Shown here piece by piece: positions 11,152 to 53,645 of a stretch of DNA of 64,000 bases. Source of the stretch: an uncultured Clostridia bacterium. GTDB taxonomy: Bacteria > Bacillota > Clostridia > Oscillospirales > Acutalibacteraceae. The notes beneath the pieces were generated by a model. That model saw nothing but the letters and a program-made list of their open reading frames with translations, was not told the DNA's origin and did not search any database. The number at the start of each line of letters is the position of its first letter. Position 1 is the first letter of the stretch. A program made the position numbers and the translations under genes. The stretch spans positions 4,974-68,973 of the forward strand of contig CAMHHL010000001.1 in assembly GCA_946184925.1 (NCBI GenBank), given 5' to 3'.

Positions 11152-13341
11152 TTATTTTACTTTGACTACGCATTTCATTGTAACGCCGTTTGATTTGACG
11201 GTTATTGTGGTCTTGCCCCTTTTGCGCGCCCTGACCTTGCCCTTGGAGTTTACCGTAGCTATTTTTTTGTTTGCGGATTTGAAGGTTGCTTTGCCTACCT
11301 TGCCCACAATTTTGATGGTGTAGGTATTGCCCTTTTTGAGCGTGAAGGTCTTTTTGGTGAGCTTGGGAGCGACGACGGTGACGGTGATTTTTGCGGTAAT
11401 TCCGCTTGAATTTGCGGTAACTACGGTCTTGCCTGCCTTCTTGCCGGTAATCACGCCCTTGCTGCTGACCGAGGCGATGCTCTTGTTCTTTGAGGTATAT
11501 TTTACCGAACCGCCGAAGTCGTTCGTAACCTTGCAGGTCTGCTTGACATAAAGCTTGACCGAGAGCTTGACTGTTTTCACCGTGGGAACCGGAACGTCCG
11601 GCTCCGGCTCGCTGTTGAGCTCCTCAAAACTTATGCCGTAGGACTTGGCGTAGCTCTCGGCAACCGAGCCCTTTTTGCCTTTCAGAGTAATATTGACGCA
11701 GCCCATGAACGCGTTCTTGCCGATTGCCGCTACAGTGTCGGGAACCAACAGCTCGCCGAGCGATTCACACCCCATGAACGCGGCGGATTCAATCCGCTTC
11801 AGGTTCTTGGGCAAGGTAACGCTCTCGAGCTTTGTGCAATTATAGAACAGCAGAGAAGGAACTTCTGTTATAGTGTCGGGAATAATAACGTTTTTCAGCG
11901 AGGTGTTGCCCGCGAGAAGGTTGCTGCCGAGTTCGGTGACGGTTTTCCCGTTAATCGTGTCGGGAAGGATAAGGTTTTCGTCTGAGGTTTCATATCGGAG
12001 AAGCTTAACGGTGCCGTCAGCCTTAACCTCATAGCTGTCGACTGACAGCGGAGCCTTGGGATTGTTGCCTGTCGGCTCGGGAAAATCTCCGCTCAGAGCA
12101 TAGATAACATCCATGTCGGAAGGGTTTTTCTTGATTGTAACGCGGAGCGTTCCGTCGAGCCTGAACGCCAGTCCGTAGATGTCATAATCGGTATTTTCCG
12201 GCTTTGTATAAATCGCCTCCGGCTTGGTGCTGCCGGGCTCGAGACGGTAGATGCTGTCGGTGTCGTTGAAATAAAAATACTTGCCGTCATAGGCGAGGTA
12301 ACAGTATGCCCTCTCCCAGAAAGCGCCGTTAGCCATGTCCGCAACCAACCAGCGCGCGGTGGTCATATACTGGGATTTGTTGGCGCCCGTGTCACGGTTG
12401 CGGCGCATAAGCGAGCCGTAGATGCTTGCAGAGTAGAGCTGGTCGATATAATAATCGCTGTCGCCGATTTTATATATAGCCGTACTGACATTTTTTACCC
12501 AGCTTTTGTCGTAAATTTTGCTGCCTGCCTTCGCCGAGCTCGCCCAGTCGTGATGTACTCCGCCGGAAGAAATCTCATTGTCACTGAGCAAAAACCACTT
12601 GTGCTCAACCCTGCCGAGGTTGTCGTTGCTCGGGTCGTCATAGGTAACATCGACGTGATAGATTTTGCCGTCTATATAAACCAGATTCCACGAATGGCGC
12701 ATCGGAAGACTCTGGATATAATGGGATTCAACGCCGACCTTCGAGAGCAGATGCTTGTACGCAAGGGTATAGCCCTCACACACCGCGTCGTTCATTACCA
12801 TAGCGCCGTAAGCGGTGAATATCAGCAAATCCTGGTTGAACTCCTCCATATCATACTCGCATGTGAGTACAAGCTTGTCGTGGAGATAGAGCGCCTTGTC
12901 ACAGTCGCTCCAATCGGGCGAGATTCCCTCGAGGTATTTTTCCGTAGCCTTGTCGAACTCGGCAACAGCGTCGGTGAGCGCGCTGCCCGTGAGCAGATAA
13001 TAAGGGCGGATTGAAATCAAATCGTTGGTCTCGACCCTGACAGTGGTTTCAAAATCGTGAGGATTTATATAGAAGATATCGGGATTCTCGCAGAGTACGC
13101 TGAAAAAAATCGAGTCGATATCCTTGACATTAACTCCGAAGCTCTCAACCGAAATATCCGTTTTATACTCCCGGAACTGCCCGGCGAGATAATCGCACAG
13201 TTCGGGATACAGCACCGTGATTTCGCTCGGAGAATGCTGCTTTAGAAGCTCGCCGCTGTTGATGGTATCCTCGGCGTTAGCCGTGACGCAGCAGGAGCAA
13301 AGCATAAGCATCACAAGAAGCAGTGCGGTAAATTTTTTCAT
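11152..13341 (-). CDS. Secreted transglutaminase-like protein with BspA-type leucine-rich repeats and C-terminal Ig-like (Big_2) repeats
   Basis: Signal peptide MKKFTALLL..ANA; Cys-His-Asp motifs VCEGY, HSWNLV, VDVTYDD; LRR IPDTITEV..LFYNCTKLESVTLP; SKNKSIASVSSKGVITGKKAG repeats; start reset to ATG 13341 (GGTGAG RBS). Confidence 0.85.
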   Translation of the reverse strand: MKKFTALLLVMLMLCSCCVTANAEDTINSGELLKQHSPSEITVLYPELCDYLAGQFREYKTDISVESFGVNVKDIDSIFFSVLCENPDIFYINPHDFETTVRVETNDLISIRPYYLLTGSALTDAVAEFDKATEKYLEGISPDWSDCDKALYLHDKLVLTCEYDMEEFNQDLLIFTAYGAMVMNDAVCEGYTLAYKHLLSKVGVESHYIQSLPMRHSWNLVYIDGKIYHVDVTYDDPSNDNLGRVEHKWFLLSDNEISSGGVHHDWASSAKAGSKIYDKSWVKNVSTAIYKIGDSDYYIDQLYSASIYGSLMRRNRDTGANKSQYMTTARWLVADMANGAFWERAYCYLAYDGKYFYFNDTDSIYRLEPGSTKPEAIYTKPENTDYDIYGLAFRLDGTLRVTIKKNPSDMDVIYALSGDFPEPTGNNPKAPLSVDSYEVKADGTVKLLRYETSDENLILPDTINGKTVTELGSNLLAGNTSLKNVIIPDTITEVPSLLFYNCTKLESVTLPKNLKRIESAAFMGCESLGELLVPDTVAAIGKNAFMGCVNITLKGKKGSVAESYAKSYGISFEELNSEPEPDVPVPTVKTVKLSVKLYVKQTCKVTNDFGGSVKYTSKNKSIASVSSKGVITGKKAGKTVVTANSSGITAKITVTVVAPKLTKKTFTLKKGNTYTIKIVGKVGKATFKSANKKIATVNSKGKVRARKRGKTTITVKSNGVTMKCVVKVK

Positions 13342-13356
13342 AATCTCACCTACTTT

Positions 13357-13440
13357 AGGCAACACCGCACAATTTACGGCGCACGCCTTGCTTGAATATT
13401 GTTCCGTCATGTTGCCCAAAAAAGTCTCGGCAAGGCGTCA
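13357..13440. repeat. 84-bp element, copy 1 (exact reverse complement of 61604-61687)
   Basis: Base-by-base comparison: 84/84 identical, mismatch immediately on both sides. Confidence 0.97.
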
Positions 13441-15662: not shown

Positions 15663-17114
15663 TTATAATTTTTTTAGTCCTTTTTCAAGTCTTCTGAGAC
15701 TCTCGTCGCGACCGAGAATGTCAAGAATCTCAATCGCTCCGCCCGGTGTGACGGTCTGTCCTGCCGCCGCGATGCGAACCGGCCACATGACCGTGCCGTT
15801 TTTGAGCTCCTTTTCCTGAGCCATATTAATAAGACAATCGTGGATGCTGTCGGCGTTCCACTCGGGGAGAGCCTTGAGCCTCTCGTACGCTTCCCTGAGA
15901 ATTGAGGGAACGTTGTCGAGGTTGGTTTTGCTCTTTTTATTGACAAAAAGCTCGGTGCCGTACTCGGGAAGCTCGGCGAAGAAGCGGAGCTTGTCGGGAA
16001 TGTCGGTGAACTTTTCGGTTCTCTTCTGCAAAATTCCGGCGAACTTTGCGTAATCCATCGGCTTATCGCCGAAAACCTCCTTGTAATAAGGCATGGCGTG
16101 CGCGGTGAATTCTTCCTCGGACATCGCCTTGATGTACTCGGCGTTGAACCAGAGCAGCTTGTCATAGTCGAACACCGCCGGGGATTTTGAGATACCCTCG
16201 ATGAAGAACGCCTGCTCGAGCTCCTTCATCGAGAAGATTTCCCGATTGTCCTTGGGGCACCAGCCGAGGAGCGCGATGTAGTTGATAATCGCCTCGGGGA
16301 GATAGCCCTGCTCAACCAAGTCCTCAAAGCCGGTCGCGCCGTGGCGCTTGGAAAGCTTGGAGACGGAGCCGTCCTCGTTCTTGCCCATAATCAGCGGCAG
16401 GTGAACGTAGGTCGGGATTTCCCATCCGAACGCGTCGTAAAGAAGATTATACTTCGGCGTGGAGCTGAGATATTCGCTTCCGCGGACGACGTGAGTAATT
16501 CCCATGGTGTGGTCGTCGATTACGTTCGCGAAGTTGTATGTCGGGTAGCCGTCGGTCTTGATAAGAATTTGATCCTGAAGCTCTGAGTTTTCGACGGTAA
16601 TCTCGCCGAACACGGCGTCCGAGAAGGTTGTGCTGCCCTCGAGCGGCATCTTCTGGCGGATTACATAGGGTGTGCCTGCGGCAAGCTGCGCGTCAATTTC
16701 CTCCTGAGAGAGGTCGCGGCAATGCCTGTCATAGCCGCCGAACTCTGAGTTCTCGGCAAGCTTTTCGAGCCTTTCCTTGGAGCAGAAGCAGCGGTAAGCC
16801 TTTCCGCTTTCGACAAGCTGCTCGGCGTAAGGCAGATACATATCCTTGCGCTCGCTCTGGACATAGGGACCGTAGTCGCCGCCCTTGTCGGGACCTTCGT
16901 CGTGGATTATTCCGGCTGTTTTCAGCGTGTTATAAATTACGTCAACTGCGCCCTCGACGTATCTCTCGCGGTCGGTATCCTCAATTCTGAGGACGAATGT
17001 GCCGCCGTTGGACTTTGCTATAAGATACTCATACAGCGCCGTGCGAAGGTTGCCGACGTGCATAAATCCCGTTGGCGAAGGCGCGTAGCGCGTGCGAACC
17101 TTTTTGATTACCAT
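15663..17114 (-). CDS. gltX: Glutamate--tRNA ligase
   Basis: [36 protein letters not shown]. Confidence 0.97.
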
Positions 17115-17148: not shown

Positions 17149-17177
17149 ATTATATCATAAGAATATTAAGGTATCAA
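17149..17177 (-). promoter_or_regulatory. SigA-type promoter of gltX-glnS
   Basis: Minus strand TTGATA-17 nt-TATAAT. Confidence 0.7.
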
Positions 17178-17210: not shown

Positions 17211-17414
17211 AATTAACAGTTAACAGTTAACAGTTAATAATTAACAGTTATGGTCGTGCAGACAGATTGCGCGATACTTACGTTTTGTTCCCGACAGAGT
17301 TTTTATGCTTGCTGCGCAAGCAGCATTTAAATCCGGTCGGCTATACGACGTTGTTTTCCTATTCGACCTATCTACTCGACCGAAACTGTTAATTATTAAC
17401 TGTAAACTATTAAC
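17211..17414. repeat. Composite repeat A: 130-bp core (17252-17381) inside inverted TTAACAG-type heptamer arms
   Basis: Arms 17219-17256 and 17377-17414 form a ~38-bp imperfect inverted repeat; core colinear with 25434-25563 and 53371-53500. Confidence 0.92.
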
Positions 17415-17416
17415 TT

Positions 17417-17440
17417 AAAAGCGCCGCTTTGTGCGGCGCC
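17417..17440 (-). terminator. Intrinsic terminator of the PBP gene, abutting repeat A
   Basis: Minus strand gcgccgc-acaaa-gcggcgc-tttt. Confidence 0.65.
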
Positions 17441-17442
17441 TT

Positions 17443-19512
17443 TCAGCTTGTTTTCTTATTCTTGAAATACTCGTCGAGGAGTGACTTTGCGACTCCCATG
17501 CTGAAACGTCCCTTTGCGCCGTGCTCAAGCACAACCGCGACAGCCACCTCGGGCTTTTCGTAGGGCGCGTAGCAGATGAATACGGTATGGTCGCTGCCGG
17601 AGTTCTCGGCTGTACCGGTCTTGGCGGCAACCTTAACCTTATAATTTCCGAAAACGCTGTAGGCGGTTCCGTATGGGGAGCTTACAACATTTCTCATAGC
17701 GCTTTGAACAGTCGCGAGATTATCCTTTGATACTCCCGAGGTGCTCAGCACCTCCGGCTTTGAGGAATTGTACTTATAGACTGTTTTCTTGCGCTCGTAG
17801 TTTCGGATTTCCTTGACGATATGTGTTTTCAGGCGAGTGCCGTTGTTGGCAATTGTCGCGACGTAGGTCGCGAGCTGAACCGGGGTGAACGCGTTATCCG
17901 ACTGACCGATTGCAGCCTGAACCGTGTTTCCCTCCTGCCAGGTTGTACTGTCACGTCCGGCGAGGAAGCCGGTGCTTTCGTCAACCTCGAGTCCGGTTTT
18001 CTCTCCCAGTCCGAATTTTTCGGCGTAGAGATACATAGTGTTGATGCCGAGCTTGCGTCCGGTTTCGGCGAAGAAGTAGTTACAGCTCTCGGTGATAGCG
18101 TCGTTGAGCCCGATTGAACCGTGAGTTCCCATGCACGCGACGGGGTTAGACGGATAATAGTCGTAGTACTTGGTGCAGGTGACGGTGGAAAACGGAGTTA
18201 TGGTTCCCTCCTGAAGCGCCGCGCACGCCACGCAGGGCTTAAACACCGAGCCGGGCGCGAACGAGCCGATAAACGCGCGGTTGTACATCGGAGCGGTTTT
18301 CGCCTCGGAGAGCGCAACATAATAGTCGCCGTACTTCGAATATTTATTGAGATCATAGGTCGGATAGCTCGCCGAAGCGAGAACCGAAAAGTCCTTTACA
18401 CTGAGCATAACAGCCGCGCCTGTCTCGCAGTCCTCGCCCTGACCTTCTCCCTCGGAGAGCATCTCGGTCTGACCGTTTGCCTTCGCCGCCTTGATCTGGG
18501 TTGCGAGAGCGGTGTTCGCGACCTTTTGAAGCTTGCTGTCGATTGTGAGATAGACGGTGTTGCCGGGCTTTGCCGCTTCGGACTGGACAAGCTTGGTGAT
18601 GTTACCCTCGGAGTTCTTCTGAACCATGCGCTCGCCGCCGACGCCCTTGAGCTCGTCCTCATAGGCAAGCTCTATGCCGAATTTTCCGATGCTGTCGTTG
18701 TAGCCGTAGTCCTTGCCCTCCTTGATTTTCGCCTCGTATTCCTCCTGATTGATGCTGCCGAGAGCACCGAGGATGTGCGGCGCGAGATTGCCGACGGGGT
18801 TGTAGCGCGTGAGGAAGGTCTGGATTTCAACTCCGCTTGTGCCCTGAGTATTTTCGCTGATTATGGCAACCATGTCGGAGCTTATATCCTGAGCAAAGAT
18901 ATACGGCGTTGAGTTGGAATAATAACAAAGCTCCATATTATAATGTATCGAAATCAAGTTTCTGAGATTAGTTTTGTTCTTGATTTTTCCGAGGTCATAG
19001 CGCTCGGTGAGAAGCTTGATGCATTTGTCGGCGGAGTCGCTGTTTTTGAGGTCGAGATAATCCTCCGACTTGAGTGTTTTGATGTCGTCGGCGCGGTTTT
19101 TCCTGAACTCAAAGCCGTTGTCGCCGAGCTTAATCGGCAGGGCGTCAATCCATTTTTCGCCGCGTGTGTTCATGAGCCTTATGAGCGAGAGCAGAGTTGA
19201 ATCAAGCTTGTCCTCATCCATATACAGCTTGTCAATCGCAACCCGGTAGCCGGTGCGGTTGACAGCGAGCCCGACACCGTTGCAGTCGAGGATTTCTCCT
19301 CTGGTAGCGTCGGTTGTGACTGAATAAGCGGTGGAGTTGCGGGCAATTTCGGAATACTCCTTACCGTCGGCAATCTGCCAAAAAAACAGCCGCACGACAA
19401 ATCCGCAGAAAATCACGAGTGTGATAATCACGCAGATTCCGACGCGCTTGCTGATGAATCTTTTCTGTTGTTCCTGTCTGTCCTTGTCTTCGTTCGGAAG
19501 CGTGAAAATCAC
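17443..19512 (-). CDS. mrdA: Class B penicillin-binding protein (PBP2/MrdA-like)
   Basis: N-terminal TM, RGEILD, SxxK (PGSVFK), SCN, KTGT; follows mreBCD; start codon uncertain. Confidence 0.88.
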   Translation of the reverse strand: MIFTLPNEDKDRQEQQKRFISKRVGICVIITLVIFCGFVVRLFFWQIADGKEYSEIARNSTAYSVTTDATRGEILDCNGVGLAVNRTGYRVAIDKLYMDEDKLDSTLLSLIRLMNTRGEKWIDALPIKLGDNGFEFRKNRADDIKTLKSEDYLDLKNSDSADKCIKLLTERYDLGKIKNKTNLRNLISIHYNMELCYYSNSTPYIFAQDISSDMVAIISENTQGTSGVEIQTFLTRYNPVGNLAPHILGALGSINQEEYEAKIKEGKDYGYNDSIGKFGIELAYEDELKGVGGERMVQKNSEGNITKLVQSEAAKPGNTVYLTIDSKLQKVANTALATQIKAAKANGQTEMLSEGEGQGEDCETGAAVMLSVKDFSVLASASYPTYDLNKYSKYGDYYVALSEAKTAPMYNRAFIGSFAPGSVFKPCVACAALQEGTITPFSTVTCTKYYDYYPSNPVACMGTHGSIGLNDAITESCNYFFAETGRKLGINTMYLYAEKFGLGEKTGLEVDESTGFLAGRDSTTWQEGNTVQAAIGQSDNAFTPVQLATYVATIANNGTRLKTHIVKEIRNYERKKTVYKYNSSKPEVLSTSGVSKDNLATVQSAMRNVVSSPYGTAYSVFGNYKVKVAAKTGTAENSGSDHTVFICYAPYEKPEVAVAVVLEHGAKGRFSMGVAKSLLDEYFKNKKTS

Positions 19513-19531
19513 CTCTTTCCATTAGATATAA

Positions 19532-20041
19532 TCAATCCCTCATGTTCTTGTAGAGGAAGCTGTTGAGGAAATATAGGATAACCTCGCAGGCTATTGTGTA
19601 GATGATCCGCGAGATATAGTGGTTAACAAAAAATCCGAGCGCGTTCCCCTTCCCCGCAATAACATAGAAGAAGAGGAAATACGCCAGAATCAGCGCGGTG
19701 GAAATCACCGCGGTGAACGCCATAACGTTGAGGAAGCTCGCGACGAGCTTGTCCCTGAAAAACATGCTCAGCCCAAAGCAAATCAGCGTGAGGGTGAACG
19801 TGAAGAAGCCCACGCCGTCGCCGTAGCCGAAATCGAGCATAAGTCCGCCGGCAAGACCGAAGAACATCGCCGGAAGCTCGGACTCCATGTATGAAATTGT
19901 CAGAACCGCCGGGAGAATCATCAGAGGCTTGCTGCCGAAGAGCTCCGGCATGAGGTTCGGCGTTGTCTGGAGCACAAAAAGCAGAATCAGCTCCAGCGAA
20001 TACGCAAGATATCTGAAAAATGTATATCTGTGTGCCATCAA
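19532..20041 (-). CDS. mreD: Rod shape-determining protein MreD
   Basis: Hydrophobic 169 aa, FGLAGGLMLD motif, position after mreC. Confidence 0.85.
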   Translation of the reverse strand: MMAHRYTFFRYLAYSLELILLFVLQTTPNLMPELFGSKPLMILPAVLTISYMESELPAMFFGLAGGLMLDFGYGDGVGFFTFTLTLICFGLSMFFRDKLVASFLNVMAFTAVISTALILAYFLFFYVIAGKGNALGFFVNHYISRIIYTIACEVILYFLNSFLYKNMRD

Positions 20042-20880
20042 CGGGCTCCCTTTGAAGAAGGCGTAATCTCGCCCTTGTTCTTGAAATCGGTGAGGACTGC
20101 AACGTTCGTCACATTCTTAATGTCCTCGTAGCTTTTGACCTCGGCGTACTTGGTCGCGTCGTATTCGTCGTACTTAATCGCCGTGACCTTGCCGATAATC
20201 AAATCCCTGGGATACACGCCGCCGATTCCCGAGGTTACAACCACGTCGCCCTTTTTCGCCTTTGCGTTCGCGTCAATCTTTGTGAGGGTGGTGCGGTTGT
20301 TGTCGCTGAGAAGCGCGTTTCCGGTGACTACTCCGCTGTCGGCGGTTCGCTTGACAAGCGCTCCTGCCTGAAAATCAGGCGAAAGCACTGTCGTTACTTT
20401 GCTGCTCGCGGCGTTGACGGAGCTGATGAAGCCAATCAGACCGTTTTCGGTCACAACCGGGTCGAGCTTCTCGATTCCGACAGCCGAGCCGGCGTCAATC
20501 GTAAAGGAATAGAAGTCCTCGTTTGTATCGCGGCGTATGACAGCAGCCGGGAAAAGCTGAAAGTCGGAATTCGACTTTTTGAGGTCATAATACTTCCAGA
20601 GCCTCGCGTTCTCGTCGCGAAGGTCATAGTAATCGACCAGCTGAGTGCGCAAGTCGGCAATCTCCTTGCTGAGCTGCTCGTTCTCGGCAAGGAGTTCGTC
20701 ATAGGTCTTTGTCTCGGTTGAGGCGGCAACCGCCGTAACCTGAGAAAGTCCCTTGGTTATGAAATTGAAGCCCGAGCTAATGAAGTTGTTCCCGGATGCG
20801 GAAAAAATCGCGAGTACAATCAAAACCGCGATTGTCACGGCGAACACCCTCATGCTCTTGTTTGAAAAAAATTCTCTCAT
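20038..20880 (-). CDS. mreC: Rod shape-determining protein MreC
   Basis: TM + coiled coil (ENEQL, ENARL), VVTENGLIG, VVTSGIGGVYP. Confidence 0.93.
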   Translation of the reverse strand: MREFFSNKSMRVFAVTIAVLIVLAIFSASGNNFISSGFNFITKGLSQVTAVAASTETKTYDELLAENEQLSKEIADLRTQLVDYYDLRDENARLWKYYDLKKSNSDFQLFPAAVIRRDTNEDFYSFTIDAGSAVGIEKLDPVVTENGLIGFISSVNAASSKVTTVLSPDFQAGALVKRTADSGVVTGNALLSDNNRTTLTKIDANAKAKKGDVVVTSGIGGVYPRDLIIGKVTAIKYDEYDATKYAEVKSYEDIKNVTNVAVLTDFKNKGEITPSSKGAR

Positions 20881-20914
20881 AATTTATACAAAGCGAGCCG
20901 CAGCGCGGCTCTGA

Positions 20915-21925
20915 TTACTCTCTGTTGTGCTTGTATTCGGCTCTCATTCCGCCGAGACGCGCTCCGGCGCCCTCAACTACGCAGTCGAGAGGACGTTCCG
21001 CAATGTGAACGGGCATGCCTGTCTCTTCCATGATGAGCTTGTCGATTCCGCGCAGCTGAGCGCCGCCGCCTGTAATCATAATGCCGTGGTCAATGATGTC
21101 GGCGGAGAGCTCGGGCGGAGTTTTCTCGAGTGTGTTGCGGATAGCCTCGACGATAACCTTGAGCGGCTCGGCGAGCGCCTCGCGGATTTCCTCGGCGGTT
21201 ATGGTGATGTCCTTGGGAAGCCCTGTCTCGAGGGAACGGCCTTTGACGAGCATGTCGTGCTCGTCCTTGTACTCATAAGCGGAGCCGATTGCTATCTTGA
21301 TTTCCTCGGCGGTGCGGTCGCCGATGAGAAGGTTGTATGTCTTTTTGATGTAAGTTGAAATCGCCTCGTCGAACTTGTCGCCGGCAACCCTTACGGAGCA
21401 CGCGGTTACAATGTCGCCGAGTGAGATTACGGCAACCTCGGAGGTTCCGCCGCCGATATCGACAACCATCGAGCCCGTGGGCTCGTCCACCGGAAGTCCG
21501 GCGCCGATTGCAGCCGCCATGGGCTCCTCAATCAGTGTGATGTTTCTGCTTCCGCTCGCCTGAACAGCAGCGTTCTCGACAGCTCTGCGCTCAACCTCTG
21601 TAACGCCGGTGGGCATGCAGATAATGATTCTCGGCTTGCTGAAAAGACCGGGCTTCGCCGCCTTGCGGATGAAGTGCTTGAGCATTGTGGCGGTGATGTC
21701 AAAATCGGCGATAACGCCGTCCTTTAGCGGACGAACCGCAACGATTGAACCCGGGGTTCTTCCTATCATCTCGCGAGCCTGTTCGCCGACAGCGAGAACG
21801 CTGTCGTTACGGATGTCAACCGCGACAACGCTGGGCTCACGCATAACGATACCCTTGCCCTTGATGCAGACAAGCGTATTCGCCGTACCTAAATCAATTC
21901 CGATATCCTTAGAAAAAGAAAACAT
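20915..21925 (-). CDS. mreB: Rod shape-determining protein MreB
   Basis: [50 protein letters not shown]. Confidence 0.97.
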
Positions 21926-22099
21926 ATTGAAACTCCTTTCGGACTGAAATTTCTGAATCGGGCTATAGCCTCATATTAAATTATAACTTATTAAAAAAAC
22001 TAAATCAATAATAATTTGTCATATTCGCTGTTTTGCAAAAGCAATTCCCTCAATTTGTCCGCACATCTATGCGATTTGCTAAATATAGCGACGGGAATC

Positions 22100-22537
22100 T
22101 TACCTCTTTCCGGTGGAACCAAAGCCGCCCTCGCCCCGGTCGGTGGAGCCGAGATCGTCCGTGAGAACTAAATCCGGAACGAACACGGGCGCAATCACCA
22201 TCTGCGCCACACGCTCAAGGGGCTCAACTGTGTAGCTCTCGCAGGAAACGTTGCAAAGTCCGACGCAGACCTCGCCGCGGTAGTCGCAGTCAACCACTCC
22301 GACGCCGTTCGAAAGGCATATTCCGTGCTTGACGCCGAGCCCGGAACGCGCATAGAGAAACGCCGCCGCGCCCTCGGGGACGGCAACCGCGATTCCGGTG
22401 GGAATTATCCTGAGCTCGCCGGGGGCGATTGTCACGCTCTCGTCAATACAGGCATAGAGATCCATGCCTGCCGCTCCGGCGGTTGAACGTGTGGGAAGCT
22501 TTGCATTCTCTCGCAGTAGTTTTATTTTCAGTTCCAT
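22100..22537 (-). CDS. dut: dUTPase
   Basis: AAGMDL, RSGL, GVVDCDYRGE, RVAQMV, RGEGGFGSTG. Confidence 0.96.
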   Translation of the reverse strand: MELKIKLLRENAKLPTRSTAGAAGMDLYACIDESVTIAPGELRIIPTGIAVAVPEGAAAFLYARSGLGVKHGICLSNGVGVVDCDYRGEVCVGLCNVSCESYTVEPLERVAQMVIAPVFVPDLVLTDDLGSTDRGEGGFGSTGKR

Positions 22538-22670
22538 TTTTATCTCCTAAACTTGCAAAAATACATTTTCCTTGCAATTATACAATATTTTTATAATTAT
22601 GCGCTCATTTATACAAAACCGACAAAATTCCGCGCCGGAATTATGCATATTTCCCAACAGGAAATTTTTC

Positions 22671-24743
22671 TCAGATTACTCCGCGTTTATAGAGCCCGTG
22701 GGTCTTTTCGCCGGATTCAAGGCATTTACTGGAAAAATCGTGTATGTTTTCCACGTTTTCCACATAGTTTTCCACAGAAAACCGCCACGACTCAAAATCA
22801 AGCGCCGGCGATGACGAAGCGAAGCCAAGCTCCTCGACAGGAACGGTGTTGAGCACCTCTGTCGCAAAACCGCCACACGTAAAAATGAAAGTTTTGCCCA
22901 GTCTATCCTTCATTTTTCCTCTGCCGCCGCAGTCCCGGCAGCTTATCCGAGCGCTCTTGTTCGGACAGTTCCGGGTGAGCATAAGCGGAAGATAGCCATA
23001 GCTGATTATGCCTCTGGGGAGCTTGCCGCCGAGTGTGTTGATCTGTTCCTCGCGAAGCTCAAAGCTCAGCTCGGCGTCGGCAAATCCGAAGCTCAAAGCC
23101 CATTCGAGGTCCGGCGTATTGGTGAAGTTCAGCCCGAAGCCGCCGTGAAGAACAAAGCCCTGCTCTCTCGCGAGATATACGGCTCCGTGGTTGTTGCAGA
23201 GCGCGTCGATTATGCCGAGTTTGTTTAATTCCGTCAGTTTTTTTCTTACCTTTTCTTCGCGCGAGAACAACGCCCGCGGAATTTCAACACCGAGCCTGAA
23301 CCCTTTTTTCAAGAGCTTTTTCAGCTCTTCCGGCTCGCTGTCGAGCGGCACAAAGCAGAGGTCAAGATCCCTGAAGCCGCTGCCGATTTTTGTAGAAGTA
23401 AATCTCGCGTAACGCTTGTGAGCGGACGCTTTGTGCGGCTCGAATTTTTCGGGTATTATTTCGTTTATTTCATACTTATTTATATTCGCGCTGCCTTCGT
23501 AGTAAAGCCCGAGCGCCTCGCGCCTGAGCTCGTTGATTGCGGAGAGCGGAAGGCTTACGTCCCTGCCGAGACGGATTTCGCACTCTGTAACATTATAGGG
23601 AGTTCCGCCCGTTTTTAACAGCTGCCTGCGGACTTTTTCCTCGTCGAGCGGTCTGTTTATCGCCTTTTCGCACACAACGCCCTTCGCCTGAGCCGTAGCC
23701 GTTGTTCCCGTTTCGCCCGTCACGCTCAGCGTCGGAGCTTTTCCGACCTCGGCGCTGAACAGCATGCTGATATTAACGCGTTTTTTCTCGTCCTTATAGC
23801 CGGCGCGGATTTCGGAAAAAAGCTTTTCCGTCGCGCTTACGACGTCCTCCTTCTTCCTGTAGCCGAACATTTCGTAACCGCGCTTAGAGGTGTAGTAGCC
23901 GTCGGTAAAGCCGGTGCGCGAAAAAACTCCGCTGAGCTGCGCGGCGGTTTTTTCGTCGACAAAGCCGTTGTCGCGCGACTGAACGCAGGCTTTGACGGCG
24001 GCGGCAACATATTCGGGACGTTTGAGCCTGCCCTCGATTTTTGCCGAGGTAACTCCGAGCGACTGCAAATCGCGCAGGCGGTCTATGATACTGTTGTCCT
24101 TGAGGCTGAGAGCGCAGCCCTTTTTGCCGCCGACCGAGAACGGCAGCCGACACGTCTGGGCACAGCGGCCGCGATTGCCGCTGCGCGAGCCGAGCATAGC
24201 GCTGAAATAGCACTGTCCCGACACGCTCATGCACAGCGCGCCGTGGACGAACACCTCGGTCTCTATCGGACAGCTTTCTGCTATTTTCTTTATTTCCTCG
24301 CGGTTGAGCTCACGCGCGAGAACCACGCGGCTGAATCCGAGCTCCCACATCAGCTTCGCGCCGCCCGGAGTGTGGATACTCAGTTGGGTTGAGGCGTGGA
24401 GCGGAAGGCTCGGAGCAATCCTCTTCGCGAGCATCGCGACGCCGATATTCTGGACAATCAGCGCGTCTACTCCTGCTCTCGCCGCCGAGGCTATGAGCTG
24501 CGCCACGCCCTCGAGCTCGCTGTCAAAAACTATTGTGTTAACCGTAAGGTGAACCTTCACTCCGCAGGCATGGCAGTATTTCACCGCCTGCACGAGCTCC
24601 TCGTCCGAGAAATTCTCGGCACCGGCTCTGGCGGAAAAGGTCTTTGCGCCCATATATACCGCGTCGGCTCCGCTGCGCACGGCGGCAATGACGGAATCAA
24701 TTCCGCCGCAGGGCGCGAGGATTTCTATCTTTTTGTTATTCAT
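22671..24743 (-). CDS. U32-family peptidase-like protein (RlhA/TrhP-type, DUF3656-like C-terminus)
   Basis: EILAP.G, GADAVYMG, EVFVHGALCMSVSGQC, NRGRCAQTCR, KIEGR. Confidence 0.9.
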   Translation of the reverse strand: MNNKKIEILAPCGGIDSVIAAVRSGADAVYMGAKTFSARAGAENFSDEELVQAVKYCHACGVKVHLTVNTIVFDSELEGVAQLIASAARAGVDALIVQNIGVAMLAKRIAPSLPLHASTQLSIHTPGGAKLMWELGFSRVVLARELNREEIKKIAESCPIETEVFVHGALCMSVSGQCYFSAMLGSRSGNRGRCAQTCRLPFSVGGKKGCALSLKDNSIIDRLRDLQSLGVTSAKIEGRLKRPEYVAAAVKACVQSRDNGFVDEKTAAQLSGVFSRTGFTDGYYTSKRGYEMFGYRKKEDVVSATEKLFSEIRAGYKDEKKRVNISMLFSAEVGKAPTLSVTGETGTTATAQAKGVVCEKAINRPLDEEKVRRQLLKTGGTPYNVTECEIRLGRDVSLPLSAINELRREALGLYYEGSANINKYEINEIIPEKFEPHKASAHKRYARFTSTKIGSGFRDLDLCFVPLDSEPEELKKLLKKGFRLGVEIPRALFSREEKVRKKLTELNKLGIIDALCNNHGAVYLAREQGFVLHGGFGLNFTNTPDLEWALSFGFADAELSFELREEQINTLGGKLPRGIISYGYLPLMLTRNCPNKSARISCRDCGGRGKMKDRLGKTFIFTCGGFATEVLNTVPVEELGFASSSPALDFESWRFSVENYVENVENIHDFSSKCLESGEKTHGLYKRGVI

Positions 24744-25230
24744 TGTCAAAAAGCGAAATTTGTCGCGAGGGTATATATCCCTTTTCTTCCTCGGGCTCCG
24801 CAGGCTTGGGCGAAGCCTCGGGCATACGCTCCGAAAGCTTCTTCTCCAGGTGCTTCTTTTGATCGGAGAGGGCTTTGAGCTCCTCGTTCTTCTTTTTGAG
24901 CTGTTCCTTCAGGGAGCGGATTTCATCGTCCTTTTTAAAGCCTTTTTCCTTGAGCTCTTTGAGCTGCTTGGACTGCCTGTCCGCCTGAGCAATGAGCGGC
25001 TTGGCGTTGGTCGCAAGGCTCTTGCTGCGCTCTATCTCCTTGTATTTGTCGTCGGCATAATCCAGGGCGCAGAGAATCGCCGCGCCGCGCCTGTCAAGGG
25101 TAGGGTTCTTCTCGGTGATTGCTTTTATCGCGTCATTTACCTCGGACGCAAGCTTCTGAACATAATCGTCCTTGTCCTCACTGAGAAGCACAAAGTGCTT
25201 TCCGGCAACATAAACCGTATGTCTGTTCAT
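24736..25230 (-). CDS. zapA: Cell division protein ZapA family with coiled-coil extension
   Basis: V.VAGKHFVL.S...DYVQKLA..VN...AAILCALDYAD; zapA-U32-dut order. Confidence 0.75.
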   Translation of the reverse strand: MNRHTVYVAGKHFVLLSEDKDDYVQKLASEVNDAIKAITEKNPTLDRRGAAILCALDYADDKYKEIERSKSLATNAKPLIAQADRQSKQLKELKEKGFKKDDEIRSLKEQLKKKNEELKALSDQKKHLEKKLSERMPEASPKPAEPEEEKGYIPSRQISLFDNE

Positions 25231-25365: not shown

Positions 25366-25789
25366 CAATTAGCAATGTGCAATGAGCAATTAATGTACAA
25401 GTTGTAAGTGGTAAGATGTAAGTTGTAAGTTGTTGTCGTGCAGACAGATTGCGCGATACTTACGTTTGGTGCCCGACAGAATTTTTATGCTTGCTGCGCA
25501 AGCAGCATAGAAATATTTTCGGCGCAGCGGCGTTGTTTTCCTATTCGACCTATCTACTCGACCATAACTTACAACTTCCTGCTTACAACTTACAACTTAA
25601 CAGTCGTTTGATAGGACAGCAACACACAGCTCAAACGTTACCTTTACAGACGTCGGATAGGAGCAGTTGTCACAGCCCAAACACAACATCGGATAGGAGA
25701 AGTCACGTAACAGGGTTGAGATAGTAAAAAAGGAGCACTCAAGCCAAAAGGGTAGAGAGAGAAAAAACTGCCGCGGAGTGCGGCAGTTT
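25366..25789. repeat. Composite repeat B: GCAATTA heptamers, TTGTAAG arms, 130-bp core (25434-25563), terminator-adjacent module and terminator
   Basis: Modules align by eye with repeats A, C and D. Confidence 0.92.
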
Positions 25790-25795
25790 GGGATG

Positions 25796-27379
25796 TTAAC
25801 TTTCGTCAGCCTGAAGCTTGATGGAGACCTTGTAGGTTTTGTCCGCGTCGGGGCGGTAGATTTCGAGCATAACCTCGTCGCCTGCCTTGTGCTTGGCGAG
25901 CGCGTTGTAAATATCGGTGAAGGTCTGGGTTTTTGTTCCGTCGAGAGAAACGATTACATCTCCCTCCCGAACGCCCTTTCCGTCGAGAGGTCCGCCCTCG
26001 CCGATTGTTTCGACCTGAATTCCGTAAATTTCTGCTTCTTCATTGTAGACGGCTCTTCCGGTTATACCGATTTTTACTCGTCCGCCTACGAAGCCGTTGC
26101 GGATGATGTCATCGGTGATTTCCTTGACGGTTTGGCTCGGAATAGCGAAAGCCATCGCCTCAAAATCATCGAGAACAATTTTTGAGGAAGTTATGCCGAT
26201 AACATAGCCGTACATATTGCAGAGCGGTCCGCCGGAGTTTCCGGGGTTGATTGCCGCGTCGGTCTGGATAAGCTTTGAAATGTTTGAAACAGAGGTCTCG
26301 CGGTCAATTGCGGAGATAATTCCCTTTGTGACTGAGTTCTGATACGCAAGGCTGCGCGGATTGCCGACAGCGATGACGTCTTCGGTTACTTTGTTCTGGG
26401 CGCTGTCACCGAACTGAGCCGGAGTGAGACCTTTCGCGTCGATTTTGAGCACGGCGAGGTCGGTTCGGTTGTCGAAGCCTACAACGCCTGCCTTGTACTC
26501 CTTGTTGTCGTTGGTGACAACCTTGATTTTGTACGCGGTGCGGCTGTTTGCGACAATGTGCGAGTTTGTAATGATGTAGCCGTCGGAGGTTGTGATTATT
26601 CCGGTGCCCATTCCCGTGTAGCTTGAGGTTGTGCCCTCCTGTCCGTCAACATAGCAGATTATTCCGACGACAGATTTCTCAACGTTTTCAAAGGCGTATT
26701 CGGCGCCGTATTTCTCAGAATCCTTTTTCTCGGGCTTTTTATTGAGACTTAGTCCGGTGTAGTTTTTATTTACTTTATCCTTGGCGTCCGACTCGGGATA
26801 ATTGCCGTTCCCGATTTCCGCGTCGGTTTCGGGCTGCGGAGTGGTGCTGATTTCGGTCGGGAGCTCAAAGTTGAATCCGCCGTTATCCCGGCTCTGCGAA
26901 TCCGCGCTCTTGGTGTCGTGATTCATAGCCGTAAAGGTTATGAACGCCGCGAGCGCCGCCGCCAAAATCGCAATCGCAATTGCGACGAACGCCTTTTGTC
27001 CGCCGGACATCGGCTGCTTCTGCGGAGCAGGTACGCCGTAGGTAATCCGGTAATAGTCCGGCTGCTCGTTCTGAGGAATGTAGGGGTTGCGGTTGTCGCG
27101 CGGAGCATACGGCGGCTGCGGAGGATAAGCAAACCCCTGCTGACGATAGCCGAACGGGGGCTCCTGCGGCGCCGGCTGAGGCACAGGCTGAGGCTCCTGC
27201 GCAGGCTCGGGCTGAGGCTCCGGGTACGCAACCGGCTGCTCGGGCATCGGGGGCACACTCGGAGTTTCGGGCTGGGTATAATTCATTGCCGGAGCACGGG
27301 GAGGCGTCGGAGGAGGAGTGGGTCTGCTCTCCGGCTCGGTTGATGTATTTTCATTTATATTATTGTTGAATTCGTCCAT
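25796..27379 (-). CDS. htrA: HtrA/DegP-like membrane serine protease with PDZ domain
   Basis: GTGIITTSDGYIITNSH, DLAVLKI, IQTDAAINPGNSGGPL, PDZ; Pro/Gln-rich N-terminus then TM; AAGGAG RBS. Confidence 0.92.
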   Translation of the reverse strand: MDEFNNNINENTSTEPESRPTPPPTPPRAPAMNYTQPETPSVPPMPEQPVAYPEPQPEPAQEPQPVPQPAPQEPPFGYRQQGFAYPPQPPYAPRDNRNPYIPQNEQPDYYRITYGVPAPQKQPMSGGQKAFVAIAIAILAAALAAFITFTAMNHDTKSADSQSRDNGGFNFELPTEISTTPQPETDAEIGNGNYPESDAKDKVNKNYTGLSLNKKPEKKDSEKYGAEYAFENVEKSVVGIICYVDGQEGTTSSYTGMGTGIITTSDGYIITNSHIVANSRTAYKIKVVTNDNKEYKAGVVGFDNRTDLAVLKIDAKGLTPAQFGDSAQNKVTEDVIAVGNPRSLAYQNSVTKGIISAIDRETSVSNISKLIQTDAAINPGNSGGPLCNMYGYVIGITSSKIVLDDFEAMAFAIPSQTVKEITDDIIRNGFVGGRVKIGITGRAVYNEEAEIYGIQVETIGEGGPLDGKGVREGDVIVSLDGTKTQTFTDIYNALAKHKAGDEVMLEIYRPDADKTYKVSIKLQADES

Positions 27380-33169: not shown

Positions 33170-33182
33170 TAAATAACCCACA

Positions 33183-33605
33183 AAACTGCCGCACTCCGCG
33201 GCAGTTTTTTCTTTCTCTACCCTTTTGGCTTGCGTGCTCCTATCCGATGTTTTGTTTGGGCTGTGACAACTGTTCCGAACCGACGTCAAAAGCCTTCCCT
33301 TGGGGGAAGGTGTCGCCGACAACTTGTTGGCGGTGACGGATGAGGGACTACGTTTTTGCAAGAAGTGCTTTTGATAAGGAGTATTCTTTACTCTATATCA
33401 CGGTTTCTGTTAAATGTTGGTTATTGTAACAATAAACTGAGATGTATCGGAAAAGTAGTCCCTCATCCGACCGATTCGCAAGCGAATCGCCCACCTTCCC
33501 CCAAGGGAAGGCTTTCACGTTTCCGCTGCGTTAATTGCTAATTGCTCATTGCTAATTGCTAATTAATTACGCATTACGAATTACGCATTACGAATTATGC
33601 ATTAC
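33183..33605. repeat. Composite repeat C: terminator + adjacent module, inverted pair of REP-like palindromic units, AATTGCT and ATTACGC heptamer arrays
   Basis: 33183-33287 matches rc of 25650-25789 with one deletion; 33291-33355 is the exact rc of 53555-53619. Confidence 0.92.
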
Positions 33606-44312: not shown

Positions 44313-44495
44313 TTATCAGGACAGCGTACGATTTGTGCGCTGTCTTTTCCACACTTATTTTTTGATTTTTAAGGATTTTTTAAAAGTTTTGTGCTATTAT
44401 TATGTTAGATTGGGGAAGTTTCTGTCAAACGAATTATTGCTTTTTCAGGCACTCAGACCCCGTCCGCAAAGCTCTTGAAATCAGGAGGAGATAGT

Positions 44496-47400
44496 ATGTT
44501 CAAAAAATTCACCGGGCTGCTGCTCGCGATGGCTCTTTTAGCAGGGATGTTAGTTTTTCCCGGCTCAACAGCTTCCGCGGAAACAACCGCCGAAAGCACA
44601 CGCCAGTTCGCTCAGTCTACGGTACGCGGAAGCGCGGTGCTGCACTGCTTCAACTGGTCGTACAAAGCGATAACCGAGAACCTCGCCGACATTAGAGCGG
44701 CAGGCTACACCGCGGTTCAGACCTCGCCCGTTCAGGCTCCGAAGGACTACAACTCCTACTGGACAGATTTAAACGGTCAGTGGTGGAAGATGTACCAGCC
44801 AATCGGACTGAGCGTTGCCGACGGCAATACCTGGCTCGGCACCAAGGCTGAGCTGAAAACCCTCTGCGATACGGCGGAGGAGTACGGCATTAAGGTCATT
44901 GTTGACATTGTCGCGAACCACCTGGCGAACAACGGCAGCGACGGCGGAACCTACTCCTACCTCAACTCGGGCGTTGAGTCCGACCTCAAAAACTCCTCAT
45001 ATTATCACACCAACAATATTTGGATTAACGATGACAGCCGATATAATATGACTCAGTATCATATCGGTATGCCCGACCTCAACACATCAAACAGCTATAT
45101 TCAGAAAAAGGCTCTCAGTCTGCTGAAGGAATGCGCCGACCTCGGCGTTGACGGCTTCCGCTTTGACGCGGCGAAGCACATTGAGCTCCCCACCGACTCG
45201 GGCTGCGCGAGCGACTTCTGGCCGACGGTCATAAACGGCGTCAACAGCTATAAGAGCGGACTTTTCTCCTACGGAGAAATCCTCGGCGGCGCAGGCACCG
45301 AAATCTCAAACTACACCAAATACATGGACATCACCGACAACTATACCGGCGAAAAAGTCCTCGACAAGGTCTACTACAATGCGCCGACCGAAGCCGCGGA
45401 CATAACATACTACAAGGGCGCCGGAGCGTCACACTCCGTGCTCTGGGTTGAATCTCACGACACATATATGGGGGAAACCGGCTCATCCGCGTTCAAAAAC
45501 ACCTCAGCGATATCCTCCGACATTCTCACGAGAGCATGGGCTGTCATCGCCTCGAGAGCTGATTCGACCGCGCTTTACTTCGCGAGACCGAACTCGACAA
45601 TGGGCAAGGCGAGCTCCGACACAAACTGGAAATCTACAGCCGTCGCCGAGGTCAACAAGTTCAAAAACTTCTTTGACGGCACCGAAGAATATCTCTCCTC
45701 AAGTTCAAGTAATTACTGCGTTTATAACGAGCGCTCAACCTCAGGCGTTGTAATCTCCAAGCTTAACGGCGGAGGAACGGTCAGCCTCACCGCCCACAAA
45801 ATGGCGGACGGAACCTACACCGATCAGGTCTCCGGCAACACCTTCACCGTTTCCGGCGGAAAAATCCGCGGAACCGTCGGCTCGACGGGCGTCGCCGTTG
45901 TTTATAACCCGGAGGATGACTCCGCGCTGAATCCGCTCAAGAACACCTATCTCCTCGGCGACTTCAACAGCTGGAGCGAGAGCGACAGCTCAAAAATGAA
46001 CGCCGACTCGGACACCGTGCTGAGCAAAACAATTACGCTGAGCAAGGGCACCTATGCCTTCAAGATAAAAATGTTCGACACCTGGTACGGCAACGACGGA
46101 ACAATCACTGACACAACCACCACAACCTCAACCCACGGCTGGGAATTTTCGGAAGCGGCGGACGACTGCACCTTAGACGCCACCGGCGGAAAATATACCT
46201 TTACGCTCGACACAAGCACTATGAAGCTCATCATCACGCGCGAAGAAACACCGACCGAAGCCACCACCAAGGCTCCCGGTATTTCGTACTATGTTGTCGG
46301 CTCGTTCAACGGCTGGAGCAATTCCACCGCAATCAGCGACGGCTATTCCGTCAACCTGAAAGCCGGAACCTACACCTTCAAAATCAAGGACAGCAACGGC
46401 AACTGGTACGGCAACGGCGGAAAAATTTCCGACACAACCACCACAACCTCAACCCACGGCTGGCAGTTCACCTCATCAGCCGGCAACTGTACACTTGTCG
46501 CGACGGGCGGCGTCTACACCTTTACCCTCAACACAAGCACAATGAAGGTCATAGTCACCCACTCCCAGGAAACAGTTGAGCCGCACGAGGTTTCTTACTA
46601 TCTTGTCGGCGATTTCAACAACTGGAGCAATTCCTCCGAAATCGGCGACGGTTACACAATTCACCTCGACAAAGGGAGCTATTTGTTCAAAATTATAGAC
46701 AGCGACGGCAACTGGTACGGCAACGACGGAACAATCGCCGACACAACAACAACCACCTCAACTCACGGCTGGCAGTTCACCCCGGAAGCCGGGGACTGCA
46801 CGCTGACCGCTTCCGGAGGAAGCTATACCTTCACCTTTAACACGGAAACTATGAAGCTCATAGTCACCTACGCGGAGGACGTTACGGAGCATGACTACAC
46901 CGTGAATTTCGTATACAAATATCACGTCTTTGATACGTCACAGGGGCTTGAATACGCTGACGGACGCGAGTCATCGGCTCTCAACACCTATACTGCGACA
47001 AGCACGTTAACCTCTGCCGAGCTCGACGACGCAAATTATGTCAATAGCCTTGCCAAGCAAAATACGCCGGATATTCTGAGCAATTACTATAATTACAGCT
47101 TTCCGGAAAGCGACGAGGATTATGTCGTCTCTGACGCGGTGAACGGCGTGGTCAATGTTACCGTCACACTCGAGAATTCTCCGAGAGAATACACTGTTTA
47201 TCTGCTCAGCGGCGAGAAGAACGGAAGCATAGTCAAGACCAAAACCTGTCACTATAACGAGAGCGTAACCTTCGACGCAAGCTCGGACGGCGAGTGTGAA
47301 GCAGAATTTGAGGACGGATTCATCTGGCATTACGGCAAAAAGAACTATAATCCGACTTCCGACACAGTGCTCTCGGTTAAAAAGTCGTTCTCATTCAAGG

Positions 47401-53234: not shown

Positions 53235-53645
53235 ATATCTCTACCCTGTTTTTTACTATCTCTATCCTGTTACGTGAGTGCTCCTATCAAAGGTTTGGCT
53301 TGAGCTGTGACAACTGCTCCGAACCGACGTCTGTTAAGTTGTAAGTTGTAAGTGAAAAGTTGTAAGTTGCGGTCGAGTAGATAGGCTGAATAGGAAAACA
53401 ACGTCGTATAGCCGACCGGATTTAAATGCTGCTTGCGCAGCAAGCATAAAAATTCTGTCGGGCAACAGGCGTGAGAAACTCACAATCTGTCTGCCCGACC
53501 TTTAATTACGCATTACGCATTACGAATTACGCATTAAAAAAGCACTTCTTTCAGAAACGTAGTCCCTCATCCGTCACCGCCAACAAGTTGTCGGCGACAC
53601 CTTCCCCCAAGGGAAGGCTCGGTGCGTTTCCGCTACGCTAATTGC
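53235..53645. repeat. Composite repeat D: terminator-adjacent module, TTGTAAG array, reversed 130-bp core (53371-53500), ATTACGC array, REP-like unit
   Basis: Each module matches repeats A, B or C. Confidence 0.92.

Follow-up and report, generated by a model that had tools for sequence, protein, structure and literature searches.

A palindromic intergenic repeat with mirrored heptamer-array arms in uncultured ruminant-gut Ruminococcus

A non-coding repeat with a 130-bp core, flanked on each side by an array of 7-nt repeats (the arms), occurs in three copies, lettered A, B and D (Table 1), in a 64,000-nt stretch of DNA (the window) from contig CAMHHL010000001.1 of an uncultured Clostridia bacterium, and the same family is found in uncultured Ruminococcus of the ruminant gut. 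The family is not described before, and no description of repeats of such kind in Ruminococcus was found in the literature. The explanation that we favour, and to which we give about an even chance, is that of a DNA-level, non-autonomous intergenic element similar to the doublets of repetitive extragenic palindromic (REP) sequences known as REPINs and to MITEs (miniature inverted-repeat transposable elements), having arms resembling short tandemly repeated repetitive (STRR) sequences, which would be mobilised in trans and homogenised by gene conversion.

The three window cores align without gaps over 130 bp, as an earlier note on this DNA had stated, and their pairwise identities are 88.5% (A-B), 89.2% (A-D) and 82.3% (B-D). 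The central hairpin, given in that note as TGCTTGC-TGC-GCAAGCA, has the same letters in all three copies. With regard to the proposed bounds GGTCG...CGACC, all three cores finish with CGACC and both A and D start with GGTCG, but B starts with TGTCG. Two words of the core, a 26-mer that takes in the central hairpin and a 32-mer at the 3′ end, are present in the window three times apiece, compared with 0 expected from 100 shuffles. The terminal 14-mer GGTCGnGnAGAnAG is present, inverted, at both ends of each window copy, and six of its 10 matches in the window are core ends (1.2 matches expected). Terminal inverted repeats, a feature of MITEs, are found as GGTCGnGnAGAnAG / CTnTCTnCnCGACC at the ends of A, B and D and across the family. 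No fourth copy or solo palindromic unit was detected in the window by nhmmer (E < 0.01).

A hidden Markov model (HMM) of the core, as suggested in the earlier note, yielded 36 copies in 203 kb of DNA (nhmmer). The core is comprised of two palindromic units of ~45 nt flanking a 22-nt hairpin. In the copies of the type found in the metagenome-assembled genome (MAG) RUG14301 (RUG-type), which are better preserved, the order is a forward heptamer array, unit 1, ATGCTTGCTGCGCAAGCAGCAT with an AT-rich spacer on either side of it, unit 2 and a reverse heptamer array. Unit 1 consists of TGGTCGGGTAGACAG, a variable mini-hairpin and GTCTCCCGACC, and unit 2 of GGTCGGGCAGAGAAG, a variable mini-hairpin and CTaTCTGCCCGaC. 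The central 22-nt hairpin is the same in 32 of the 36 copies, most of which were retrieved via that 22-mer, and the other four, found by the HMM, carry a second version, TTCGCTTGCGCGAAGCGCAT. The invariance of the 22-mer is partly a matter of ascertainment, and the four variant-hairpin copies set the scale of this bias.

The window type and the RUG type have the termini, the CCCGAC/GTCGG feet of the hairpins and the 22-nt hairpin in common, and their hairpin tips are unrelated; syntenic coding DNA of the window and RUG14301 is ~80% identical at the nucleotide level. Judged from sequence comparison, the retention of termini and centre amid unrelated tips argues for a putative sequence-specific protein partner encoded elsewhere. 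The idea that the window type is a RUG type with a flipped central hairpin was dropped, as the spacer comparison is ambiguous. Solo palindromic units and related unit families also exist. Among the compared loci from related MAGs and metagenomes (labelled L001 and so on), related families built on CCCGAC/GTCGGG and TCTGCCCGA motifs were observed in L028 (575-800) and L017 (4620-4700 and 4880-5010), and they include a 92-nt unit in at least three tandem repeats.

A RUG-type copy is predicted to form three successive hairpins (-60.8 kcal/mol, z = -8.2), and its reverse strand folds equally well. Folding z-scores over the copies range from -2.6 to -8.9. In the window, the units of A and B are decayed (z of about -2.6 to -3), and D is better kept (z = -4.3), with the best preserved unit 1 (tip GTGAG-TTT-CTCAC). 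In a 26-sequence alignment, the three-hairpin model has 81.6% of cells paired, compared with 39-48% when it is slid, and 17 pairs are changed on both sides; its covariation score of 0.137 (versus 0.116) was reached by none of 500 shuffles. An alternative nested pairing of the core ends has 80.5-85% of cells paired without covariation, and is therefore regarded as a conserved terminal inverted repeat rather than a supported stem.

The exact 22-mer ATGCTTGCTGCGCAAGCAGCAT was found at 17 loci in a genome scan, all of them in uncultured rumen or deer Ruminococcus MAGs (14 in RUG14301; this MAG and the two deer MAGs are all labelled uncultured Ruminococcus sp.). Of 12 loci from a metagenome scan, 11 are true and one (L023) is unrelated. 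The window derives from a gut metagenome, and weaker matches to it come from goat and bovine gut samples. A viral scan for the exact 22-mer returned no locus, and no core match was found in IMG/VR, INPHARED or PLSDB; a phage or plasmid origin was rejected, the lone viral 16-mer match being a chance one inside coding DNA. As far as the collections show, the family is limited to a small clade of uncultured ruminant-gut Ruminococcus. The closest relatives of the window ZapA are 73% and < 60% identical, and hence the window has no close strains; the locus L016 of RUG14301 is syntenic with it at 80-82% nucleotide identity. In the source metagenome, the summed word depth of the core reaches ~1660 compared with 19 for unique flanks (a ratio of up to ~87), and contigs terminate within the element. 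From these data we infer a copy number of the order of one hundred per genome.

None of the copies lies within, or is spanned by, an open reading frame (ORF); all are intergenic, and 13 of the 14 sites with both neighbours callable lie between tandem or convergent genes. Copy A is located past the terminator-like hairpin of PBP2 and ahead of the gltX promoter, copy B past the htrA terminator and ahead of the zapA promoter, and copy D between convergent 3′ ends. Many RUG copies likewise adjoin terminator hairpins. The hairpin behind PBP2 was not reported by the terminator scan, presumably because its T-run pairs with the A-run. The hairpins of the core itself were considered as terminators and rejected, as they have no T-runs. 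With respect to the upstream gene, orientation is random (~9 sense, ~11 antisense), and the difference in folding energy between the strands is not significant (mean -1.9, sd 6.1 kcal/mol, n = 28); both findings fit a DNA-level element.

The arms of the window copies are of the types previously described: TTAACAG on both sides of A (32 of 41 nt complementary), TTGTAAG/CTTACAA around B (31 of 41) and unmatched around D (GCGTAAT versus TTGTAAG, 22 of 41). In copy A, an irregular unit (TTAATAA/TTATTAA) is mirrored at equal distance from the core on either side, and irregular units are also mirrored in L012, which may be a sign of occasional intrastrand (hairpin) templating between arms. From A and B, the earlier note had reasoned that complementarity is kept while the heptamer is swapped, and hence that a cassette mechanism operates. 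This fails in the wider family: among the 22 non-window copies, complementarity is no higher between partner arms than between non-partners (mean scores 16.9 and 18.7; permutation p = 0.99), an outcome that the note itself had named as refuting. Only window A, window B and L012 have the partner arm ranked first in complementarity, and two matched copies among three have a chance probability of ~1/3 given the window arm types. In the RUG-type copies, two arm haplotypes, alpha (TTGAAAA..ATGAAAA) and beta (TTGACAA/TTGACAG), are each found on either side of the core, and the junctions of the alpha arm with either core end recur on several independent contigs.

The arrays are always polarised toward the palindromic unit, those 5′ of it being (AATTGAn)n and those 3′ of it (nTCAATT)n, and their outer edge is regularly AATTG...CAATT. 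In the DNA scanned for arrays, 65 of 94 period-7 arrays (Tandem Repeats Finder, TRF) lie within 25 nt of a palindromic unit; of the long arrays, ~9 in 10 touch one and only ~6 are independent. The arrays differ from unit to unit and from block to block. Some of them adjoin a solo palindromic unit or another repeat module (such as the X module described below), and others stand alone, as in the core-less relative L036, where they lie beside terminators. The core-less arm pair at 33532-33605 could be empty or vacated. The heptamer vocabulary is common to species: GCGTAAT/TCGTAAT is used in the window and in RUG14301, and TTAACAA/TTAACAG heptamers are also present in a deer MAG. It is a doubtful idea that the arrays, rather than being passive microsatellites, are produced or exploited by whatever machinery acts on the palindromic units, serving perhaps as docking or homology arms for core exchange in either orientation. 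If so, the Ruminococcus system would correspond, in a Firmicute, to the STRR phenomenon of cyanobacteria, and the constant polarity of the arrays toward a hairpin would give a first anatomical handle on how heptamer arrays arise.

Some other observations concern the arrays. A very long one (19 units of AGTGAAG; L011, 7430-7563) adjoins a solo palindromic unit, and another of 11 units of AGGTAAT (L005, 2419-2501) has no palindromic unit nearby. Arm words (L011, 2743-2823 and 2959-3012; L005, 1728-1768) reach a depth of 10^3-10^4 in rumen DNA and metatranscriptome contigs, that is, 17-600 times the core depth, in many differing sequence contexts, so the heptamer arrays are far more widespread than the core family. 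The copy A left arm (17213-17254) scores as sigma-70-like promoters directed toward the core (TTAACA-17-AATAAT, 10/12), and in RUG copies the 7-nt period of TTGACAA/TTGATAA arms places TTGACA and GATAAT 17 nt apart. The arms were considered as promoters, and this was dropped, as the TTGTAAG and GCGTAAT arms have no TTGACA/GATAAT-like phasing.

The copies are mosaics. Two blocks hold the differences among A, B and D, namely core positions 19-38 (D versus A and B) and 76-97 (B versus A and D), and B has 10 differences in the 22 nt of the latter block and none elsewhere. Recombination among A, B and D was considered and set aside, as three sequences cannot show it and lineage-specific block replacement explains the blocks too. 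In the wider family, unit 1 has the hairpin-tip alleles a and c and unit 2 has x and y, and each of the four possible combinations is found (a,x in L001; a,y in L008; c,x in L014; c,y in L020). This points to recombination or gene conversion, because multi-nucleotide blocks cannot plausibly recur by mutation. The modules shuffled between copies include arms, hairpin tips, the central hairpin and whole cores. Tandem dimers are found in L003, L022 and L024, and B and D have ~330 nt in common, comprising the core, the right arm and the downstream Y module.

Four orthologous pairs of loci between RUG14301 and a rumen metagenome, with flanks 96-99% identical, illustrate the changes. L008 and L021 differ by two bases in an arm. 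L014 and L020 differ in two patches of the core and in an array block of ~50 nt. In L006/L024 the arms are the same and the core is in opposite orientation, of another subtype and a tandem duplicate, and in L017/L025 the core orientation is opposite and the central hairpin is different. Thus, the core is flipped and replaced at two of the four loci, with flanks 98-99% identical.

No target-site duplication was found at the level of the arms (best flanking direct repeat of 1.6 nt on average versus 1.8 nt for mismatched flanks, 25 copies) or of the core (best direct repeat 1-2 nt). A contig of a ~90% relative joins positions 1706 and 1939 of L005 and lacks the 232 nt made up of both arms and the core; both edges of the gap show GAT(A)TTTT microhomology. 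In L005, the first heptamer (AAT TGA) supplies the stop codon of gdpP. Among the contigs of eight runs, neither A nor B had a clean empty site, and an exact-protein search for such sites matched the source contig and fragments only. In close relatives of the window species (L033-L037), no cores are present at the syntenic sites, and the neighbouring genes are also different. A and B bracket a conserved zapA-U32 peptidase-dut-mreBCD-PBP2 block (17443-25230). Since this block has other neighbours and no cores in the five relatives, the repeats coincide with synteny breakpoints. The locus L016 of RUG14301 is also rearranged at the site of copy A.

Briefly, the favoured explanation, a selfish REPIN/MITE-like element mobilised in trans, would work as follows. 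A sequence-specific protein encoded elsewhere would recognise the hairpin feet and the central hairpin and would copy or move the unit without target-site duplication, possibly through a single-strand hairpin intermediate; our guess at the mobiliser is a hairpin-recognising transposase of the HUH/Y1 type or a similar one. The element would settle in untranscribed gaps just past terminators. After insertion, ectopic gene conversion and recombination would homogenise and reshuffle the copies, and, as the unit is nearly palindromic, a donor could pair in either orientation, which is proposed to account for the flipped cores, mosaic copies and tandem dimers. The arms would be hypermutable, STRR-like microsatellites that change by slippage and by gain or loss of blocks, and they may occasionally be re-symmetrised when, through intrastrand pairing (hairpin or cruciform), one arm templates the other.

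Several points weigh against this explanation. No transposase or parent element turned up among the window ORFs, the neighbours of the repeat clusters or 309 kb of carrier DNA. The ~40 window ORFs scanned with Pfam contain no transposase or recombinase, in line with the earlier note, which had placed the enzyme outside the window; the ORFs beside repeat clusters are housekeeping genes; and nhmmer hits include no longer core version or parent element. A tblastn search of the 309 kb with an IS200 TnpA query, which had low power, gave nothing significant, and no RAYT (the Y1 transposase that accompanies REPs as a single-copy gene flanked by them) was seen in these ~309 kb. In addition, all cases of flipping or replacement come from short-read metagenome assemblies, in which repeats may be threaded wrongly, and the sole empty-site contig is divergent and of low depth. 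The ~330-nt segment of B and D looks like segmental copying, not fixed-end movement. The centre is the most conserved part, unlike the spacers of REPINs, and the RNA data treated below leave room for transcription of the element.

Some of the same evidence could be explained by a mosaic repeat with no dedicated enzyme, in which host nucleases break the palindromes, prone to form hairpins or cruciforms, and repair from ectopic copies, through arms or units, spreads the modules, as has been suggested for some BIME/NIME-type mosaics. The absence of target-site duplications and of any transposase seen, the block mosaicism with all four allele combinations, the cores flipped or replaced between retained arms, the larger segment of core, arm and Y module common to B and D, and the tandem dimers are all in its favour. 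It leaves unexplained how units of arms and core reach new, non-homologous sites and why species with unrelated tips retain both the termini and the 22-nt hairpin, a pattern that points to a partner protein of the kind proposed above; we consider it unlikely. The model of the earlier note, in which the core stays constant and matched heptamer arms are exchanged in pairs by a dedicated mechanism, draws on the matched arms of different heptamers in A and B and on the mirrored irregular units in A and L012. It is very improbable, since partner arms are no better matched than non-partners, mismatched arms are seen in copy D and in many RUG copies, either side of the core can bear the same arm haplotypes, two orthologous loci keep their arms while the core is flipped and replaced, and arms also flank other elements or stand alone. 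The flipped cores at two of four orthologous loci and the arm haplotypes on either side of the core might also suggest an invertible switch (inverton), in which a site-specific recombinase acting on the inverted arms flips the core, and a gene for a Xer-like tyrosine recombinase lies 239 nt from the core copy in L012 (2944-3933; below the XerC/XerD equivalog cut-offs). Such a recombinase is usually a housekeeping enzyme, however, and the flipped cores are of other subtypes, even with another central hairpin, and hence are replacements rather than flips. As there is also no convincing promoter inside the core of the window copies and no second orientation at copy A in the source sample, an inverton is hardly credible.

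It is also conceivable that the core is a functional structured RNA, either a multicopy small RNA or a 3′-end stabiliser or terminator transcribed with its neighbours. The strong predicted folds with covariation, a slight excess of G-U pairs in the plus orientation (91 versus 67), and the position of the majority of copies downstream of genes would agree with this. In three rumen metatranscriptomes, contigs cover the core at a depth of 7-90, with zero depth on unique flanks. However, in DNA the core is 40-85 times as deep as the flanks, so the RNA runs show a core depth that is indistinguishable from ~1x DNA carry-over, and the very high arm depth in the metatranscriptomes comes from heterogeneous other contexts. 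Furthermore, no Rfam family is matched: the window has 0 matches at the gathering score and L011 at E ≤ 10 only noise (E > 0.3), and the core is not a known non-coding RNA; no tRNA or tmRNA was found in the window. Copies A and B are each preceded by an intrinsic terminator and followed by the next promoter, and neither orientation nor folding energy favours a strand. We regard an RNA function as improbable, and put no greater trust in a host-beneficial architectural DNA site like the BIME-1 of E. coli, with units and central motif bound by gyrase or a nucleoid protein. The two units around a partly dyad-symmetric centre (ATGCT..TGCGCA..AGCAT) do recall the PU-L-PU layout, and the regular spacing of ~1 copy per 20 kb and the placement between terminators would be suitable. 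On the other hand, related Ruminococcus genomes are without the element at the same loci, copies decay (degenerate units in A, B, L006 and L010), and no binding protein is known.

Table 1. Window copies of the repeat and adjacent features (positions in the window)
Feature	Position	Strand	Remarks
gltX	15663-17114	-	
Promoter-like site for gltX, TTGATA-17-TATAAT, 11/12, TG-extended	17149..17177	-	between copy A and gene
Copy A left arm, TTAACAG array, 5.4 units including irregular TTAATAA	17211..17251	+	TRF array 17213-17250
Copy A core: degenerate palindromic unit 1, central hairpin, palindromic unit 2	17252..17381	+	nhmmer 103.9 bits
Copy A 5′ terminal inverted repeat GGTCGTGCAGACAG	17252..17265	+	pairs with 17368-17381
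Copy A central hairpin ATGCTTGCTGCGCAAGCAGCAT	17305..17326	+	same in A, B and D
Copy A 3′ terminal inverted repeat CTATCTACTCGACC	17368..17381	+	
Copy A right arm, inverted CTGTTAA-type array, mirrored irregular TTATTAA	17382..17419	+	TRF array 17384-17419
Terminator-like hairpin GCGCCGC-ACAAA-GCGGCGC, A/T-run on each side	17421..17439	-	read by eye; after PBP2 stop codon
PBP2 gene	17443-19512	-	
Separate CAATGAG array	25366-25390		ahead of copy B left arm
Copy B left arm, TTGTAAG array	25399..25433	+	
Copy B core	25434..25563	+	central hairpin 25487-25508
Copy B right arm, CTTACAA array	25564..25599	+	TRF and inverted repeat
Y module, including htrA terminator (25765-25789, minus)	25642..25798		abuts copy B right arm; recurs at 33174-33287 and 53249-53338
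Core-less mirror arrays (TAATTGC)n and (ATTACGC)n, joining at AATTAATT	33532..33605	+	TRF
Copy D right arm, CTTACAA array, homologous to copy B right arm, then Y module	53335..53370	-	
Copy D core	53371..53500	-	central hairpin 53426-53447
Copy D left arm, GCGTAAT/TCGTAAT array, partner not matching	53501..53536	-	

The genes of the window are housekeeping ones, such as glnS, gltX, PBP2, mreBCD, dut, zapA, htrA, fba, glgB, secA, hisS and aspS, and several other repeats lie among them. The X module (33291-33520 and 53538-53619) is an unrelated inverted-repeat element of ~230 bp with arms GCCTTCCCTTGGGGGAAGGTG... and ...CACCTTCCCCCAAGGGAAGGC, each containing an internal hairpin; a half copy, 98% identical, adjoins the left arm of copy D. 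The Y module (~90-160 nt, 84-97% identity) follows or includes the terminators of htrA, glgB and the ORF at 52766-53191, and abuts the right arms of copies B and D. A tandem repeat of 21 nt, GTTTTTTACTATCTCTACCCT, in 2.1 copies (53228-53271) separates the Y module from a terminator. A perfect 84-nt inverted duplicate, at 13357-13440 and 61604-61687, has its two members 48 kb apart. One of them is the 5′ untranslated region and first 21 codons of an LRR/Big_2 surface-protein gene (11152-13419, minus strand), and the second is an orphan fragment. An amylase-like ORF of 1178 aa (44475-48011) contains three tandem repeats of 309-321 nt (46076-46879), which are 74-77% identical and presumably represent repeated protein domains.

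REP, BIME, Correia and BOX repeats are well studied in Proteobacteria and streptococci, and practically no description of such elements exists for the uncultured Clostridia dominating the rumen. The present family breaks short-read assemblies, in which contigs terminate in the element, and sits at synteny breakpoints, and is of practical relevance for MAG quality and for genome rearrangement in the carrier organisms. The polarity of the arrays and the apparent replacement of cores between retained arms offer a testable link between the origin of STRR arrays and the movement of REP-like hairpins. If a cognate hairpin-recognising enzyme exists, it would form a new transposase-substrate pair with the element.

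Among known systems, the REP/REPIN and BIME clusters, which are associated with RAYT (Bertels & Rainey 2011, PMC3116915; Di Nocera et al. 2013, PMC3733652), are similar in several respects. They too are high-copy extragenic imperfect palindromes arranged as symmetric doublets with conserved ends, their hairpins are kept via compensatory change, they occur as singlets and tandem clusters mostly between tandem or convergent genes, and they have no target-site duplication. Unlike in REP, the units are ~45 nt rather than 20-40 nt long, the centre is most conserved and not the ends alone, mirror heptamer arrays flank the units, and the host is a Firmicute. REP palindromes carry an unpaired GTAG or CGTC tag at one end (PMC3733652). 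No conserved unpaired tag is present outside the stem in our family; GTAG occurs only within the stem of RUG-type unit 1 (GGG-T-AGAC), and window copies have GCAG at that place. In a REPIN, a pair of inverted REPs folds into a single long hairpin over a variable spacer; in our family the outer ends are complementary (80.5% of cells paired) without covariation, the local hairpins do covary, and the centre is conserved instead of variable. Lacking the tag and having longer units and a conserved centre, the element is not REP in the strict sense.

Like the MITEs Correia/NEMIS of Neisseria, it is ~100-150 bp in length, non-coding and intergenic, has terminal inverted repeats and a conserved central site, and has a copy number of the order of one hundred per genome. 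It differs from them in that no target-site duplication or parent insertion sequence was found, its ends are the hairpin feet of internal palindromes, and its arms are tandem heptamers; because of the lack of target-site duplication, it is not a classical MITE.

Cyanobacterial STRR3 has the sequence CAACAGT. As the earlier note had suggested, the arms are STRR-like, being period-7 intergenic arrays by TRF; taken by itself, copy A's TTAACAG array has a match on a Gloeothece plasmid, to a direct (AACAGTn)n array. In common with the cyanobacterial STRR and TAACTGA-type arrays, they are intergenic AT-rich tandem heptamers of variable number. TAACTGA-type arrays are direct, with inverted pairs being rare (1 of 170 sets; MacGregor 2015, PMC4679880). 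In contrast, the present arrays are mirror pairs pointing at a palindromic unit, and their host is Ruminococcus, not a cyanobacterium.

The BOX elements of Streptococcus pneumoniae and the NIMEs of Neisseria are modular mosaic intergenic repeats, and they share with our family interchangeable modules, a variable number of short tandem subunits and complementary end modules. Their sequences are unrelated to it, and the tandem module here is 7 nt long and lies outside the conserved part instead of inside. The Foldback (FB) transposons, which are eukaryotic, far larger and in some cases carry genes, also have long inverted arms of short tandem subrepeats whose number varies by copy; this likeness is an architectural analogy only.

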